A stretch of 29,885 nucleotides of DNA from Theionarchaea archaeon (GCA_018992685.1 JACVGT010000028.1:1-29885), one strand, 5' to 3'. Counted from the stretch's first letter, positions 7-5,341 are shown. The notes: generated by a model not told the origin, from the letters alone. Numbers and translations: made by a program.

Positions 7-837
7 CTACTGGAGCATCTTCGAAACAAAGAAAATCACCAGGACACTGTACATGCCCGCTTTTTCCAATTTCTGGACTACTGTGATCTTGTCCATTCTC
101 ATTTTCAGCAGGAGATACACAGCATACACCATGAGGGCATCCACAGGTATCACGAGAACCAAGTACAGCCAGCCAAAGATTCCTGCAGAATACGGCAAGA
201 AGGTAGCAACTATTCCCAGGACCAGGCATACAGCAGAAAGTTGTGCTGATCTTCCAACGCCCCACAAAATAGGAAGCGTTCTCGATCCCAGCCTCTGATC
301 TCCTTCTATGTCCTCAATGTCTTTGGCTATCTCACGAGAGAAATTGGCAAAAAACGCACTGACTGCCAGCATACTTACAAGCAGAACCTTCCCGGCAGCA
401 GCTCCCCCGTACACCAACGTCAAGCTCGTCAGGAAGGCCACCACGAAATTGCCACTGAGGGGGCTCCGTTTCAACTTCCAGGAATACACGAAAATCAGTG
501 CTATGGCAGGATACCCAATCAGGATACATATCCAGTTGGTGAAAGCGATAAAAAGAAAGGCCAGCCCGAACAAGAGAAGTGCGAAGATACATGCATTTCT
601 CCTGGTCACCGCTCCGCTGGGGAGGGGCCTCTGAGGCTTGTTAATACTGTCAATGTCATAATCAAAGTAGTCATTCATCACCATTCCGGCAGACGAAGCA
701 GCAATAGTACCTATAACAGCCAGGAAAACGTCCAATGGAGGAACCTGTCTTCCTGCAGCAATCATCCCGGAAAGAAAGACAGCAAATCCAGCCATTATAG
801 AGTTAGAAGGCCTGATCATTTCCAAATATGCTTTCAT
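7..837 (-). CDS. UbiA-family prenyltransferase, probably digeranylgeranylglyceryl phosphate (DGGGP) synthase
   Basis: 276 aa, multiple TM helices, UbiA Asp-rich motifs NDYFDYDIDSINKPQRPLPSG and REIAKDIEDIEGD; N-terminal MIRPSN resembles archaeal DGGGP synthases. Confidence 0.85.
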   Translation of the reverse strand: MKAYLEMIRPSNSIMAGFAVFLSGMIAAGRQVPPLDVFLAVIGTIAASSAGMVMNDYFDYDIDSINKPQRPLPSGAVTRRNACIFALLLFGLAFLFIAFTNWICILIGYPAIALIFVYSWKLKRSPLSGNFVVAFLTSLTLVYGGAAAGKVLLVSMLAVSAFFANFSREIAKDIEDIEGDQRLGSRTLPILWGVGRSAQLSAVCLVLGIVATFLPYSAGIFGWLYLVLVIPVDALMVYAVYLLLKMRMDKITVVQKLEKAGMYSVLVIFFVSKMLQ

Positions 838-923: not shown

Positions 924-954
924 AAAGAAAAAAGAAAGGTCACAGAATGTGACC
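924..954 (-). terminator. Hairpin plus U-tract terminator
   Basis: Minus strand GGTCACA-TTC-TGTGACC, a perfect 7-bp stem (938-954), followed by TTTCTTTTTTCTTT. Confidence 0.65.
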
Positions 955-1003
955 GATCTCTCACCTCCCTTCGGGACCAGTCCTTCTCTCTACTTCACTC
1001 CTT
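930..1003 (-). ncRNA. Candidate ~70-nt small RNA of unknown family
   Basis: Lies between a consensus BRE/TATA (1040-1025) and the hairpin/U-tract terminator; contains a TCCC-GAA-GGGA hairpin and GGAGGTGA with no properly placed start codon; TSS inferred from spacing. Confidence 0.4.
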
Positions 1004-1024
1004 GCATCTTCAGTACCTTTGGAG

Positions 1025-1040
1025 TATATAAATGTTTCGG
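1025..1040 (-). promoter_or_regulatory. Archaeal BRE/TATA promoter
   Basis: Minus strand CCGAAACATTTATATA. Confidence 0.65.
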
Positions 1041-1123
1041 TTTCAAAGTTGCCGAATGTTACTAAACCTATGTAGTAAGAATAAACTTCATCAATCAGAG
1101 ATGGGCTGCTCTAAACAGACACG

Positions 1124-2149
1124 TCAAGAAGTAGATTGAACCAACTTGTCCCGGGCAATTCTGAAAGCTTGCCTCACTTTTTTGTTAGTGGTCTGAGATC
1201 TCTTTTCAATATAATCCTCGAGGTTGTTCTCTCGAGTAGATTCTCGTATCATTTTCATTTCGTACAGAAAGATATTGAGGTTGTGCAGCGCCAGAATGAT
1301 TTCTGAGTCGCTGTCAGCCTTGATCATATCCTCATGAGTGTACTGCTGGCAGATTGCACACTCACAAGGGGGTAGGCTGTCTACACGTTTGATGTTCTTC
1401 ACCCGGGAAAGAGTCACAGGATGCACAAATTCCTTGAACGCTGCAGCCACCACATAAGCCCAGGAGTCAAAGGTGTCCACTCCCAGGTATGACAATGCGA
1501 AAAGAGCTGGAAACCCTGTTATCCCAAAACAGTGCACCGGCTTCTCAGTTTGCTGGCGCACCTCGTGTATCATGTCCACCAGATGGCCCAAATGATTCTT
1601 CCGGGGGACTAGAGAACCAATGCCGTACCCAGAAAACCCAGAATCAAGTTTCTGCATGTAGTCTGTTATCTCTCGAGGGTTGGAGCCATGGATAGCTCCA
1701 TACAGCTGCATGTCAGTTTTTTTCTGCTGAAGCATAATGTTGGCAGAGGCAATGGAGCGTTCCAGCCTAGCCTCCTTCTCCACGTCGTCAATATCGGGAA
1801 GGATTGGGAAATCAAAGGTGATGCCGATGTCGCAGCCCATGCGCTCCTGGTACTGCAAAACCTCCACCGGCTCAAGTTCCACGCCTTTCTTCATGTACTG
1901 AAACCCTCCGCTGTCAATGTAGACAGGGTTACGTGTGCGCAGCACATCATGAATCCCTTCTTTCAGAATTCGATCCCTGTAGGGATACTTCAAAATATGA
2001 TAGAGACTGAGAATAACGCCCTGAGACAGTTCCCACGGTGCAACGTAATCTCCTCCAATCCACTTGTCCCAGATGCCATAAGAGGCTGCCACAACAGGGA
2101 TAAGGGCGGGAGTCTTTATGATACCATGGTTTGTCACAATGTCGGGCAC
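1124..2149 (-). CDS. tRNA-guanine transglycosylase (TGT) family protein, archaeal-like catalytic domain only, no PUA domain
   Basis: 341 aa, GTG start with SD GGAGGG; motifs DSGGFQ, GIGSLVP, HCFG, nucleophile GVDTFDS, Zn site CECAIC...ALHNL. Confidence 0.85.
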   Translation of the reverse strand: MPDIVTNHGIIKTPALIPVVAASYGIWDKWIGGDYVAPWELSQGVILSLYHILKYPYRDRILKEGIHDVLRTRNPVYIDSGGFQYMKKGVELEPVEVLQYQERMGCDIGITFDFPILPDIDDVEKEARLERSIASANIMLQQKKTDMQLYGAIHGSNPREITDYMQKLDSGFSGYGIGSLVPRKNHLGHLVDMIHEVRQQTEKPVHCFGITGFPALFALSYLGVDTFDSWAYVVAAAFKEFVHPVTLSRVKNIKRVDSLPPCECAICQQYTHEDMIKADSDSEIILALHNLNIFLYEMKMIRESTRENNLEDYIEKRSQTTNKKVRQAFRIARDKLVQSTS

Positions 2150-3270
2150 GTAAGTCCCTCCAGAACCGTCTTCATCCTTTCCAAGTAGTCATCATAAGGA
2201 AAGTACAGTGTTTGATGTTCCTGATCGTAGTAATCCATGGAAATACTCTGTCCTCCCCATAGAGAGATGGTCTTTCGAAGCACAAAAAGCTGCTCATCTT
2301 CTATGAGCTCATACCTGTCCAGCTGATTCAACAACTTTATGGTAAATTCGGGGTGAGAAATACAGTAGATGACTCCATACATTCTCCCCGTTTGATATGA
2401 AGTCCACAGGAAGATCTTCTTGTAGAGTCGGGAATCCTTGGCAAAATTGAACAGCATCTTCTTGGTAGTCGAACTCTGGGGTGTGCGCACCAGGAGAAAG
2501 AAATGGGAGCACTTCCAGTACGACAAAGGAAAAATGTCACATACAGGCTGCAGGATCTTCCTCTCTGTCAAGAGCGTCTTTGCGTCTTTCCATTCTGCGT
2601 ATGTGTAGAAATTCCCCTGGGCCTTCTCCTGTTCCATGATATCAGTGAGGATGTTCTTCCCCTGCTCGAAACAGGTGATGAGCTCCTGTTCCCGGATGGA
2701 CAACTGAAGGCCTTCGAACTTGCCGAACGACAGATCAGGAATCTCCGTCTCGCCGAGCAGGTTGTCAAGAGAGGGGACAAAGTCAGCTTCTTCTGAATCT
2801 CTAAGAAAAACAGGTGGAATCACGTGTGTCTGATGGTCTTGAACATACAACTCATAGTGGAAAATTACCCCTTCCTCCTTGAGGAAATCAAACAGTTCCT
2901 TGACAGCCGTGGTATCACTGTCGAATATACTGACCATGATTCTCTTGAAAAACCGTTCTTCAATAGGATACATGTAGGAAAAACAGCCAATATTCTTAAG
3001 TAGAGAAACCATGAATCCGTACGATTGTTCAAACAGGATGATGGCAATTGACTTTCTCACGCTATTCCTGAAAATCTTGCCATAGTCCGTCTGGTAATAC
3101 GGTCCAACAAAGTATTCCTTCTCGTGCAGTATCCTCTTCAAGGTGGATACATACGGTGGATTCTTAAGATTTAAAAGATGAGCCAGTTCCTTATTGGTGA
3201 GCTCTGGCCATTTACCAATGTAATCGAGGAGTTTCATTTCAGTAAGGTTAAGATCGTCATTTTTTTCCAT
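2134..3270 (-). CDS. Putative transcriptional regulator with tandem wHTH plus alpha/beta (Lrp/AsnC-like) modules
   Basis: N-terminal LTEMKLLDYIGKWPELTNKELAHLLNL..YVSTLKRILHEK is HTH-like; a second similar unit starts at LSIREQELITCF; ATG 3270 preferred over TTG 3288 from the TATA at 3302-3295; overlaps the TGT gene by 16 nt. Confidence 0.6.
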   Translation of the reverse strand: MEKNDDLNLTEMKLLDYIGKWPELTNKELAHLLNLKNPPYVSTLKRILHEKEYFVGPYYQTDYGKIFRNSVRKSIAIILFEQSYGFMVSLLKNIGCFSYMYPIEERFFKRIMVSIFDSDTTAVKELFDFLKEEGVIFHYELYVQDHQTHVIPPVFLRDSEEADFVPSLDNLLGETEIPDLSFGKFEGLQLSIREQELITCFEQGKNILTDIMEQEKAQGNFYTYAEWKDAKTLLTERKILQPVCDIFPLSYWKCSHFFLLVRTPQSSTTKKMLFNFAKDSRLYKKIFLWTSYQTGRMYGVIYCISHPEFTIKLLNQLDRYELIEDEQLFVLRKTISLWGGQSISMDYYDQEHQTLYFPYDDYLERMKTVLEGLTCPTL

Positions 3271-3292
3271 TTGTATAAATTTGACCAACCCT

Positions 3293-3304
3293 ATTATTTA
3301 AGTA
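3293..3304. promoter_or_regulatory. TATA element probably serving both the regulator and the divergent peptide gene
   Basis: ATTATTTAAGTA reads TTTAAGTA on + and CTTAAATA on -. Confidence 0.4.
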
Positions 3305-3368
3305 TTGTGGACAAGGTAGCAGGTACCACGGAAGAGAGTCGTTATTCTGGGCAGGAGTTGGAGATCGG

Positions 3369-3482
3369 ATGCCACAAGAGGATGAATCAAAACCAGAATC
3401 GGAAATTCTGCACAAGAAAAAGAAGGTGGATAAGTCGGAAAAAGAGAATACTCATACAGCCATGTACAGCATTTTCCCATGA
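3369..3482 (+). CDS. Small 37-aa peptide MPQEDESKPESEILHKKKKVDKSEKENTHTAMYSIFP (not in ORF track)
   Basis: ATG at 3369 preceded by GGAG SD-like motifs; TGA at 3480-3482 ends 1 nt from the pelota stop; occupies most of the gap; charged composition looks like a real protein. Confidence 0.55.
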   Translation: MPQEDESKPESEILHKKKKVDKSEKENTHTAMYSIFP

Positions 3483-3483
3483 G

Positions 3484-4506
3484 TTACTCGATCTTGAATC
3501 GTAGGAAAGCTGCAATACCTCCCAGGTGCAGTAGTTTTTCTCCTCCTTCGTGCTGGGATGAAATAATGTGAGTTCTGCCCCCGCGCTGACGCGCCTGTTC
3601 CAGCAAATATTCAGTTTCCCGAGTAGTTCGCAGCAGTGTATCTACAATAAGCAGGTCTTCGCAGGCACTGTACGTAACTGCTCTCTTGACATCTTCCATT
3701 CCGTAGACTGCATCATTTGTGATGATCCTGGCGAAGAGTTCTTCCACCAGCTGAATATCTCGTGCAGCTTTTGAATCCTGATAGACTTTTTCGATCAATC
3801 CCCGTTTGACTATTTCATAGAGCCCTGTCTTTCCTGTGGTGCTCACTGACTCTATTTCCACCTGTTTCTGCCCAGTGTCTGTTAAGAACTTTCTGAACTC
3901 CTCCTTCGTGAATCCAGGACCTGCTACAATAGTAGGAAGATCATATTCAGAGATCTTGGTAGAAACCTCTTTGAAGTACTGGGCCTTGGCTGCTTTTCTC
4001 TGGGAGGGTTCCCTCTTGCCAGGGATACCCGCATGCACGGTGGCTACTTCTTCTATTCCATATTGGCGCATTACACCAAAGTCTGCCTGTTCATCATCCA
4101 TAACGACCAGCAGAATCCGGGGGGTCGTACTCTGCTGGACTGCTTCTTTCAGTCTATCCAGGTGGTACTGCCGCCATTGTTTGATAATGGTACACCTGGT
4201 ACCTTCTTCGAGGTTAATGGTATGGTGACTTCCAGAATCTTCTCCCCCTTCAATGACTCCTGTGGCTCTCAACCAGTTTGAATGGGGGTGAAACTCTATC
4301 TTCTCAATCCGTATGGTGAGGGTTACGGGTTTTTTCTCAGCTCTCTGCGGCCGCAGCAAATCTGAGGGTTGATCAGTCCTCCGGTACGTTCTGGCTTTCA
4401 GCAAGTCTCCCTCCTCCAGAATGTGGTCCAGGTGCCATAAATCTTCCAGTGATTCTATCTGAAGGCCGATGGTTCCCCGTTCTGGATGATAAGAGAAAAT
4501 CTGCAT
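3484..4506 (-). CDS. pelA: Pelota (Dom34) ribosome rescue factor
   Basis: 340 aa; ESLEDLWHL, GSHHTINLE, VAGPGFTKEEF, EGGEKLLHLGGIAAFLRF. Confidence 0.95.
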   Translation of the reverse strand: MQIFSYHPERGTIGLQIESLEDLWHLDHILEEGDLLKARTYRRTDQPSDLLRPQRAEKKPVTLTIRIEKIEFHPHSNWLRATGVIEGGEDSGSHHTINLEEGTRCTIIKQWRQYHLDRLKEAVQQSTTPRILLVVMDDEQADFGVMRQYGIEEVATVHAGIPGKREPSQRKAAKAQYFKEVSTKISEYDLPTIVAGPGFTKEEFRKFLTDTGQKQVEIESVSTTGKTGLYEIVKRGLIEKVYQDSKAARDIQLVEELFARIITNDAVYGMEDVKRAVTYSACEDLLIVDTLLRTTRETEYLLEQARQRGGRTHIISSQHEGGEKLLHLGGIAAFLRFKIE

Positions 4507-4542
4507 ACCAACCTTTTAAAATGCCCACATATAAAGGTTCAT
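4507..4542. promoter_or_regulatory. Compact interleaved divergent promoters for pelota and hjc
   Basis: TTTTAAAA at 4514-4521 (+) and TTTATATG at 4535-4528 (-), each starting 29 nt before its ATG. Confidence 0.6.
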
Positions 4543-4935
4543 ATGTACAAAAAGGGAAGACGGGCTGAACGCTTCCTGGTGGAGAAACTGTGGGATCTGG
4601 AATATGCAGCCATACGAGTCCCGGGATCAGGCAGATCGTACAAGAGGCCCCATCCTGATATAGTAGCCGGGAACGGGAAAAAGTATCTGGCCTTCCAGGT
4701 GAAGAGCACCAGCAAAGAGCGCAAGTACTTCAATGAAAAAGAGATTGCAGACTTGAAGGAGTTCTGCAGTGTCTTTGGATCATTGCCTGTTATTGCAGTA
4801 AAATTCTCACGTTCACTCAGATTATTTCATCCTGAAGATTTAACACCCACAGAAAACGGGTACAAGGTTGATTCCTCGCAAGGACAGACCCTGGAGGAGT
4901 TTCTCCATGATAATACGGCAAGTAACAGAGGATGA
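4543..4935 (+). CDS. hjc: Archaeal Holliday junction resolvase
   Basis: MYKKGRRAERFLV...IRVPGSG...PDIVAGNG...AFQVKST PD-(D/E)xK signature; start moved to ATG 4543. Confidence 0.9.
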   Translation: MYKKGRRAERFLVEKLWDLEYAAIRVPGSGRSYKRPHPDIVAGNGKKYLAFQVKSTSKERKYFNEKEIADLKEFCSVFGSLPVIAVKFSRSLRLFHPEDLTPTENGYKVDSSQGQTLEEFLHDNTASNRG

Positions 4936-5341
4936 CCTCTCGCAGGTAGCTCACATAGAGGAGGTGAGCTTTCAGAACCCGTATCCTGCAGATATTTTCA
5001 CCTTTCTGTTTGAGAAGTATCGGGAGACGTTCCTGGTGATAGAACAGGGGGGAACCGTTTTAGGATACATTACAGGAATTGATAGCTGGCGCGAGGGCCA
5101 CATCGTCTCTCTTGCCATACACCCAGCGTGGAGGAACAAGGGGATAGCCGCCCAATTGGTAGAAGAAATATGTATGATACTGAAAGAAAAGGGAAAGAAA
5201 CGGGTGAAACTTGAGGTGAGGATCTCAAATGAGGCAGCCCTCAATCTGTACAAAAAGGTAGGATTTGAAGAGCAGAAAATCGTACAGAACTATTATGAAA
5301 ACGGAGAAGATGCCGTCCTGATGAAGCGACGACTGCAATAA
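4907..5341 (+). CDS. rimI: RimI/Ard1-like N-terminal acetyltransferase (GNAT)
   Basis: GHIVSLAIHPAWRNKGIA, LEVRISNEAALNLYKKVGF, YYENGEDA; SD GGAGGA before ATG 4907. Confidence 0.88.
   Translation: MIIRQVTEDDLSQVAHIEEVSFQNPYPADIFTFLFEKYRETFLVIEQGGTVLGYITGIDSWREGHIVSLAIHPAWRNKGIAAQLVEEICMILKEKGKKRVKLEVRISNEAALNLYKKVGFEEQKIVQNYYENGEDAVLMKRRLQ

Follow-up and report, generated by a model that had tools for sequence, protein, structure and literature searches.

Why would an archaeon that encodes a full-length archaeal tRNA-guanine transglycosylase (TGT) keep a second, shorter member of the same family? The question is raised by a complete contig of 29,885 nt from a Theionarchaea archaeon (GCA_018992685.1, JACVGT010000028.1; contig C21, hereafter the window). 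A TGT-family gene, a gene for a protein with tandem winged helix-turn-helix (wHTH) domains, a small-protein gene and a promoter-terminator unit lie tightly packed here between the genes for pelota and a UbiA-family prenyltransferase, and a first-pass annotation had proposed that the four form a single novel cassette. To our knowledge, the TGT superfamily is the sole route by which 7-deazaguanines enter tRNA (Tgt, TgtA) and DNA (DpdA). The canonical archaeal enzyme, ArcTGT or TgtA, inserts preQ0 at G15 of tRNA, which is held by its C1, C2 and PUA domains; split forms of the enzyme occur in Nanoarchaeum and in some Thermoproteota.

All four elements are present in this interval, and their order recurs in two further genomes of the genus and in seven metagenome loci, but the proposed four-part cassette is not supported because the phyletic ranges of its parts differ. 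The TGT-family gene occurs throughout the order Methanofastidiosales, whereas the small-protein gene, the adjacency of the wHTH and TGT genes and the RNA unit on the TGT side are found in one genus only. We refer to the TGT-family gene (1124-2149) as TGTp and to the 378-aa wHTH gene (2134-3270) as wh384; the order on the minus strand is pelota (3484-4506), wh384, TGTp and the UbiA-family gene (7-837). The genome carrying the window is designated G000, two further genomes of the same genus are G001 and G002, and L numbers denote loci.

Results

TGTp is a catalytic TGT domain conserved throughout the Methanofastidiosales

TGTp starts with a GTG codon and encodes 341 amino acids (334-354 aa in the family). 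The protein passes the superfamily cutoffs (PF01702, 135.7 bits against 26.3; TIGR00449, 128.1 bits against 47.6) and spans positions 15-334 of a 441-position profile. It consists of the catalytic TIM barrel and the zinc subdomain alone; the C1, C2 and PUA domains are absent and no PUA match was obtained, in agreement with the earlier description of the gene as PUA-less. Scores for the named families all fall below their cutoffs: 186 versus 350 bits for the TgtA equivalog (TIGR00432), 63.5 versus 200 for DpdA (NF041059; 59.3 bits with the PADLOC DpdA model) and 47.1 versus 440 for ArcS (NF040592). The AlphaFold (AF2) model (pLDDT 92.0) has ArcTGT (1iq8/1j2b) as its top structural match, with a TMq of 0.79-0.81 at 27-28% identity. 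In an alignment to the P. horikoshii enzyme (1IQ8, whose residue numbers were counted off this alignment), TGTp retains counterparts of the three Asp (D95, D130, D249) and of the four zinc ligands (C279, C281, C284, H307); D95 and D249 are among the ArcTGT residues named in PMC5699537. The TGTp residues D79, D113, D228, C262, C264, C267 and H289 are invariant in a 23-row alignment, and a larger set of the family (50 rows) has the three Asp throughout and the zinc ligands in all rows but one. As judged from these residues, the active site is intact and TGTp is predicted to be a catalytically competent enzyme.

The source genome (3.03 Mb, GC 46.7%, 91% complete) does contain the separate canonical TgtA for which the first-pass annotation advised a check. 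This protein is full length (contig C3, 567 aa, TIGR00432 541 bits) and has a PUA-type C-terminus. An ArcS-like gene (contig C14; 294 bits, under the cutoff of 440) and a true DpdA (contig C4; NF041059, 418.7 bits against a cutoff of 200) are also encoded, and TGTp is therefore the fourth superfamily member in this organism. Given the presence of QueC and QueD on contig C10, the cell is predicted to make preQ0.

TGTp is a single-copy, vertically inherited gene that is fixed throughout the Methanofastidiosales beside canonical TgtA. Whole-genome searches gave a TGTp-level match (E <= 1e-95) in 30 of the 33 other genomes of the order, the three genomes without a match each being 85-88% complete, and in none of seven Thermococcaceae genomes. 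Identity declines with kinship, from 75-88% within the genus and 63% for the sister genus to 56-62% for other families and 42-46% for genus g4. A second, TgtA-level match is listed in 29 of the 30 TGTp-bearing genomes. Among public proteins, the family comprises 52 clusters at 55-100% identity, from this lineage only, and the next match stands at 29%. DpdA occurs in one of 41 genomes, and TGTp is therefore not tied to DpdA as a partner. A viral origin of TGTp was considered and rejected, as a relative is encoded by one viral contig only.

The neighbours of TGTp vary by family, with no constant partner. In family f4 the gene follows those for GMP synthase, a phosphoribosyltransferase (PRTase) and a PyrK-like protein and precedes an F420-oxidoreductase-like gene. 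Six f2 loci have a metallophosphoesterase neighbour, two of them with EF-2 as well; in genus g4 the neighbours are a histidine kinase and a divergent HerA-like gene whose tail is weakly MarR-type; and in the sister genus, g2, TGTp is preceded by a 167-aa MarR-family gene and followed by a transglutaminase-like gene. No C-terminal-half gene adjoins TGTp in the loci examined, and no nuclease, helicase or ATPase partner recurs across the loci of the order. Two of these arrangements were seen in finer detail. At f4 loci L066, L070, L071 and L079, a conserved run of divergent GMP synthase, PRTase-domain protein, PyrK-like Fe-S/NAD-binding protein and TGTp resembles a purine-salvage context, and could relate to guanine freed by base exchange. 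In Methanofastidiosum (L082, L085-L087, L090), a HerA-like protein of 807-835 aa is divergent from TGTp and is followed by a protein of ~503 aa with no family assigned; this arrangement is kept in all five full-flank loci examined in the genus, and a weak C-terminal MarR_2 match was found in L082, the sole one scanned.

TGTp groups with short TGTs from defence-like operons

A search of 1.84 billion representatives returned many short TGTs (~315-420 aa) with 28-38% identity to TGTp, which score equal to or slightly above the long canonical ArcTGTs against it. We built a FastTree phylogeny of 149 rows with Shimodaira-Hasegawa-like (SH-like) supports, with representatives below 300 aa dropped and sequences trimmed after residue 400-430. 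The TGTp family (support 99) falls inside a 48-row group of 39 short, 7 family and 2 long rows (support 94), separate from a canonical group of 98 rows (support 98) that includes the TgtA of the source genome. Thus, TGTp lies outside the canonical and split ArcTGTs, with which the first-pass annotation had allowed that it might group, and the short rows that do fall within the canonical clade stand apart from the TGTp family. The clades also differ at the position of Gln169: His is found in 50 of 50 rows of the TGTp family, 33 of 41 of the short clade and 9 of 97 canonical rows, while Gln occupies it in the other 88 canonical rows and in both TgtA and DpdA of the source genome. These counts exclude P0184 and P0191, long branches outside both clades.

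Relatives at 28-33% identity in named genomes come from Bathyarchaeia, Methanosarcina, Methanoregula, many Halobacteria (some plasmid-borne) and one Aenigmatarchaeote. Among 32 short-TGT loci examined, 30 have a BrxC/D-like STAND/AAA ATPase, 28 a protein of ~285 aa that shows weak wHTH matches (p285) and 23 a DpdA-like TGT to which DUF6884 is fused or with which it is associated; two long cyanobacterial forms among these loci are without the partner genes. The operons (loci L091-L142, e.g., L093:3974-7060, L100:3983-8784 and L113:967-7052) run in the order short TGT, ~285-aa protein and BrxC/D-like ATPase (~385-415 aa), together with the DpdA-like TGT+DUF6884 gene (563-1158 aa), giving two TGT-family genes per locus. 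They may be related to the BREX-related capture (BRC) systems of PMC12839542, which reportedly recruit TGT modules that are proposed to mark DNA. Homologues of p285 or of the ATPase were not found near TGTp in the source genome.

A tandem Lrp/AsnC-like protein is coupled to TGTp in one genus

The longest ORF of wh384 opens with a TTG (3288); starting from the ATG (3270), the product is the 378-aa protein encoded by 2134-3270 on the minus strand. No Pfam or NCBIfam family reaches its cutoff, the Pfam matches being limited to sub-threshold MarR and HTH_24 (E 0.012), so that the tandem-wHTH nature of the protein rests on the AF2 model. In the model (pLDDT 90.7), the chain folds as two modules in tandem, with a wHTH leading into a ferredoxin-like RAM domain (beta-alpha-beta-beta-alpha-beta) in each. 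The top Foldseek match is the fused double-Lrp-fold protein NirDL (4czc; E 5e-8, ~10% identity, TM 0.47-0.55), followed by many Lrp/AsnC regulators that each match one module with a probability of 1.00. Neighbours in a protein language model are archaeal hypothetical families of ~355-445 aa labelled HTH_24 or HTH_AsnC. At the level of the modelled fold, wh384 is a tandem Lrp/AsnC-type regulator, with putative ligand and DNA binding. A relationship between wh384 and p285 was considered and rejected (hhalign probability 0.4%).

As described in the first-pass annotation, wh384 and TGTp overlap by 16 nt (2134-2149), with the stop codon of the former lying over the start of the latter. An overlap of 7-34 nt with a GGAGG-type Shine-Dalgarno is seen in 10 of 10 genus loci (the three genomes and the seven metagenome loci, some of which are non-independent), and wh384 adjoins TGTp solely in this genus. 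Judging by gene overlap, the regulator-TGTp operon is the only demonstrably coupled part of the region, and that in one genus only. Prediction of a complex of the two proteins lent it no support (score 0.00, mark 0.32), an outcome that weighs neither for nor against an association.

The source genome holds about six to eight wh384 paralogues. The divergent small ORF and the coupled enzyme, whose recurrence the first-pass annotation had asked about, do recur within the genus but are absent from these other copies: none of the paralogues has a coupled downstream enzyme, and no similar upstream peptide was found at five paralogue loci. Long intergenic regions of 525-609 nt lie upstream of two paralogues (C23:8832-9356 and C12:107336-107944). 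In them, TATA-like boxes precede short stretches rich in purines, AGGTGAGATG-like motifs and T-runs, and further small transcription units may be present there.

Between wh384 and the small-protein gene lies an A/T-rich, TATA-like element, CTTAAATAATAG in minus-strand letters (3291-3302), and the string AATA(C/T)TTAAATAATA in this spacer is invariant in seven of seven loci. The element may drive transcription in both directions.

A conserved small protein and an RNA unit flank the operon

The small-protein gene (3369-3482, plus strand) encodes 37 aa and is divergent from wh384. Its ORF is kept, from an ATG start, in all seven loci that span the pelota-wh384 spacer. The product is 31-48 aa in relatives, with an unconserved N-terminus, a K/E-rich middle so variable that it is barely alignable and a conserved C-terminus, [MKR][YF][ST]IFP. 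The gene converges on pelota, the two stops being 1 nt apart here and a few bases apart in other loci. Across the seven loci, changes in length keep the frame. Between G000 and G001 the differences at codon positions 1, 2 and 3 number 6, 2 and 14, and in the stretch from YSIFP to the stop the variable columns number 0, 3 and 5, with changes that include AGC/AGT, ATT/ATC, TTC/TTT, CCA/CCC/CCT and, at the stop, TGA/TAG/TAA. By shuffling, the chance that composition alone leaves the frame open is 2-15% per locus. A profile search of 5.8 billion proteins recovered the peptide in four clusters made by gene callers, all from the same group. It was not found 3' of pelota in 26 loci from other genera or upstream of the five wh384 paralogue loci, and a search of the source genome for a paralogue gave one near match, an 8-codon MSKYTIFP on C8 that we take to be chance. 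This pattern of variation argues that the ORF is very probably a real small-protein gene. The motif GGGCAGGAG(T/C)TG (3349-3363, plus strand) precedes the ATG in six of the seven loci, L041 having GGAGGG instead, and could be the Shine-Dalgarno of the peptide or, on the other strand, a wh384 operator.

The promoter-terminator unit reported to follow TGTp was also found, and like the small-protein ORF it is kept within the genus. Its promoter (1025-1059, minus strand) combines a TTTATATA box (1032-1025) with a BRE-like GAAAC and, upstream, ACATTCGGCAACTTTGAAACC, which is conserved; from the archaeal consensus, we take this to be a promoter with a B recognition element (BRE) and TATA box. It is near-invariant in six loci, with close variants in L039 and L040. 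The candidate small RNA (sRNA) or leader (925-1014, minus strand; covariance model R1) is purine-rich and variable in its 5' part, where it also forms a small hairpin, UCCC-GAA-GGGA; next come GGAGGUGA(A/G)AGAU, which is conserved and single-stranded, and a terminator, which a terminator scan detected as a GC-rich hairpin (954-938) followed by a T-run (937-925). Besides promoter and terminator, the interval from the TGTp stop codon to UbiA holds ~80 nt that have no conserved ORF; the possibility that the unit is a coding gene was rejected, as the downstream frames are unconserved. The position after GGAGGUGA is AUG in seven of ten readable units and AUC or AUU in G000, G001 and G002. Promoter, core and terminator are all present in eight of the nine genus loci with downstream sequence, L041 being without the unit.

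The covariance model scores 89.8 bits in G000, 83.9 in G001 and 73.4 in G002, and under stricter filters gave zero matches in 38 other genomes. The terminator stem has one compensatory change, C-G to U-A, in two of seven sequences, and the folding energy of the unit is like that of shuffled sequence (z = +0.65). In Rfam, the top match under permissive settings, SNORD75, reaches 13.7 bits, well under its threshold of 50. For six metatranscriptome runs belonging to the same studies, the word share was 0.00 each time.

Two paralogues of the unit were found in the source genome as weaker R1 matches (C27:76122-76210 and C6:11728-11815, both minus strand). The extended promoter (ACATTC..TAA..CCGAAAGATTTATATAC) is common to them, as is the core GGTCTCGAAGGGAGGTGAA(A/T)GATG, while their terminator stems differ, and they lie ~90-120 nt upstream of unannotated same-strand ORFs of 330 aa (C27) and 474 aa (C6). 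There is no TGT-family match on C27 or C6. The unit therefore belongs to a small sRNA or leader family that is not TGTp-specific. At the C27 paralogue, no TATA-like box was seen before the downstream gene.

Flanking genes and other superfamily members

Both flanks of the region are housekeeping genes. Pelota (3484-4506, minus strand), an mRNA surveillance factor, is identified by TIGR00111 (303.3 bits; cutoff 177.65) and by eRF1 domains 1-3. On the other side, a DGGGP-synthase-like UbiA-family prenyltransferase (7-837, minus strand) matches PF01040 with 170.7 bits; its top NCBIfam match, NF009521, scores 257 bits, under the cutoff of 296. The contig ends beyond this gene, so nothing past UbiA is visible. 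A TATA-like box, CTTTATAG in minus-strand letters (858-865), is ~25 nt 5' of the UbiA ATG, and the motif CTCTTTATAG / CCTTTATAT at this box is kept in G000, G001 and G002; it is probably the gene's own promoter. The window has zero tRNA genes and zero Rfam matches at gathering thresholds. Divergent from pelota are two overlapping ORFs on the plus strand, 4486-4935 (149 aa) and 4868-5341 (157 aa), with 66-76% identity among the genus loci and 50% and 47%, respectively, in the sister genus.

The DpdA gene of the source genome (C4:63744-64976; locus L175:7622-8995, plus strand) scores 410 bits with PADLOC. It directly follows genes for a UvrD/GajB-like helicase (812 aa) and for a protein of 399 aa that weakly matches Cas4-like nucleases, and PADLOC gave no match to DpdB or DpdC among the ten neighbours scanned. 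In the 517-aa ArcS-like protein (C14:68890-69894; L060:988-2541), the ArcS profile is matched over positions 219-573 only, and the first ~172 residues have no NCBIfam match.

Discussion

The most fitting description of TGTp is a variant of the TGT superfamily at the level of a subfamily. The gene is intact, conserved across the order and kept beside TgtA, which implies a second target that has been under long selection. No such target has been described in the literature searched, nor was a published account of TGTp found there; the supplementary tables of PMC12839542 and PMC10516641, which may list TGT subgroups, fell outside that search. Should TGTp merely duplicate the job of TgtA, the finding would be an ordinary one.

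We give about even weight to the view that the region is a genus-specific juxtaposition of four real, separately evolving elements, with no single mobile or functional cassette. TGTp would carry out an Asp-mediated exchange between guanine and a 7-deazaguanine, drawing on the cell's supply of preQ0, at a nucleic-acid site other than that of TgtA. A housekeeping RNA, with a position in tRNA or rRNA as the site, would be favoured over DNA. Because TGTp behaves as a core housekeeping gene, we lean towards an RNA target, with roughly half of our confidence; a DNA target seems unlikely, though it is kept alive by the origin of TGTp in a defence-associated clade and by its lack of RNA-binding domains. 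In this genus alone, TGTp would be expressed from an operon behind the tandem Lrp/AsnC-type regulator, with the two genes translationally coupled. The regulator is probably ligand-responsive and self-regulating, and probably also controls the divergent small-protein gene through the shared promoter region. The RNA unit, one of three paralogues in the genome, would most simply be an independent sRNA or an upstream leader, and no substrate of TGTp. Since TGTp does not group with the canonical split ArcTGTs and the small ORF and RNA unit are both conserved within the genus, what stands of the first-pass annotation, as a fair reading for this genus, is a base-exchange enzyme of non-canonical type controlled by a coupled regulator; the single four-part unit does not stand.

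Several observations weigh against this reading. TGTp lacks every RNA-binding C-terminal domain of ArcTGT, and its nearest relatives of known context reside in defence-like operons, with the ATPase in 30 of 32 and the DpdA-like gene in 23 of 32; by descent, these operons favour a DNA target. In the genus, TGTp follows a gene for a DNA-binding wHTH protein, and in the sister genus a non-homologous MarR-family gene, so that the wHTH protein before TGTp could be a targeting partner rather than a regulator. All full genus loci have the four elements in colinear order, and a genus-level functional link may exist. The placement of the clade comes from one FastTree run with SH-like supports, and the His at Gln169, present in nine canonical rows as well, is a signature and no proof of a changed substrate. 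The structure of the RNA unit is weakly supported, given its z-score of +0.65 and the few covarying pairs among close relatives.

The best-surviving alternative, which we nevertheless consider unlikely, is that TGTp is a DpdA-like DNA transglycosylase with which the order marks its own DNA, and that the tandem wHTH protein is its DNA-targeting or regulatory partner in this genus. Like DpdA, TGTp is without the PUA and other C-terminal domains, and a wHTH gene lies directly upstream of it in both Theionarchaea genera. Clade members sit in operons with the BrxC/D-like ATPase, p285 (28 of 32) and the DpdA-like TGT+DUF6884 gene, and TGT modules in BREX-related systems are proposed in PMC12839542 to mark DNA. 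However, TGTp scores far below the DpdA hidden Markov model cutoff (63.5 versus 200 bits with NCBIfam; 59 bits with PADLOC) and is without the insertions of the true DpdA in the same genome. It is also order-wide and single-copy, tracks kinship and has housekeeping neighbours, with no recurring nuclease, helicase or ATPase; p285 and ATPase homologues are not near it in the source genome, and wh384 is unrelated to p285.

It strikes us as improbable that peptide, regulator, TGT and sRNA form one unit, with the peptide or sRNA as substrate or the peptide controlling the regulator. The order is the same across the genus (full sets in G000, G001, G002, L036, L038 and L040; four more loci have partial sets), the genes for peptide and regulator diverge from a common conserved promoter region, and the TGT-family enzyme Cap10 is reported (bioRxiv 10.1101/2025.04.06.647259) to bind a protein N-terminus that bears a 7-deazaguanine. 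Set against this, TGTp is order-wide and the remaining three elements were seen in the genus alone, the sRNA has two paralogues upstream of unrelated genes, and L041 keeps the peptide, the regulator and TGTp without the sRNA and UbiA. Other wh384 paralogues have neither a similar peptide nor a coupled enzyme, and the N-terminus of the peptide is not conserved. TGTp retains the zinc site, which is reported absent from Cap10, and no QueC-like gene adjoins it, QueC being on C10. A protein-linked substrate for TGTp, by the Cap10 precedent, is conceivable but unlikely.

Equally doubtful is that TGTp is a redundant duplicate, or the catalytic half of a split ArcTGT, that makes preQ0-15 beside a non-functional ORF and RNA unit. 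Sabina and Soll reportedly found in 2006 that ArcTGT without its PUA domain still forms preQ0-15; ArcTGT is moreover the best sequence and structure match of TGTp, and the purine-rich strand leaves frames open easily, with a second open frame across the spacer in G000 and G001, but full-length TgtA coexists with TGTp in the genomes searched, TGTp is separately conserved (42-88% identity across the order, invariant active site) in a clade apart from TgtA with no adjoining C-terminal-half gene, the peptide gene varies at third positions and synonymously over seven loci while its indels stay in frame, and the RNA unit retains promoter, core and terminator and has paralogues.

Returning to the preferred view of TGTp as a core gene with its own target, we suggest a broader possibility, tentatively and with more doubt than belief. 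The short TGTs with mostly His at Gln169 may be a distinct base-exchange class whose target or base differs from that of bacterial Tgt, TgtA or DpdA. Most archaea would use these enzymes within two-TGT defence operons. In the Methanofastidiosales, one of them would have been domesticated as TGTp, a core gene whose product places a 7-deazaguanine-type mark somewhere new, be it in genomic DNA, in rRNA or at a different position of tRNA. In this genus the mark would be ligand-gated by the Lrp-like protein cotranslated with TGTp, with the YSIFP protein in the same regulon. The occurrence of short-TGT relatives with a DpdA-like gene in defence-like operons suggests a testable link between housekeeping and defence base exchange, and the conserved 31-48-aa protein and the three-member RNA family enlarge the small-gene inventory of an uncultured lineage.

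Among known systems, ArcTGT/TgtA (1IQ8, 1J2B) shares with TGTp the TIM barrel and zinc subdomain, with the Asp residues and zinc ligands retained. TGTp differs in lacking C1, C2 and PUA, in its score (186 versus 350 bits), in its separate clade beside a coexisting 567-aa TgtA, and in having His for Gln169 and GSL for GGV/GVV in the pocket loop. It resembles the split ArcTGTs in being a stand-alone catalytic-domain polypeptide; unlike them, it has no adjoining gene for the C-terminal half in the loci examined, and its genome has an unsplit TgtA. DpdA is likewise a TGT paralogue without PUA that retains the catalytic Asp and the zinc motif (PMC5699537), but TGTp is without the DpdA insertions, has His in place of the Gln of DpdA and TgtA, and does not lie in a defence island. 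The short TGTs of the defence-like operons are the nearest relatives outside the family (28-33% identity), of the same length class and mostly with the same His; they are patchy in distribution and embedded in a multi-gene operon, whereas TGTp is order-wide and has none of those partners nearby.

Two further comparisons extend beyond nucleic-acid base exchange. In bioRxiv 10.1101/2025.04.06.647259, Cap10 of type IV CBASS is described as a TGT-family protein with Lys154 at the base-reading position, no zinc site and a remodelled tRNA surface. TGTp resembles it as a short TGT-family enzyme with a non-Gln base-reading residue, and Cap10 offers a precedent for a partner that is not a nucleic acid. 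TGTp is set apart by its zinc ligands and by having no CD-NTase or Cap9/QueC-like neighbour, and PADLOC on the window gave DpdA matches only and no CBASS. As for wh384, its two wHTH+RAM modules in one chain resemble the NirDL/AhbAB siroheme decarboxylases and the Lrp/AsnC (FFRP) regulators, but it falls below the Pfam HTH_AsnC-type and AsnC_trans_reg cutoffs and has ~10% identity to 4czc.

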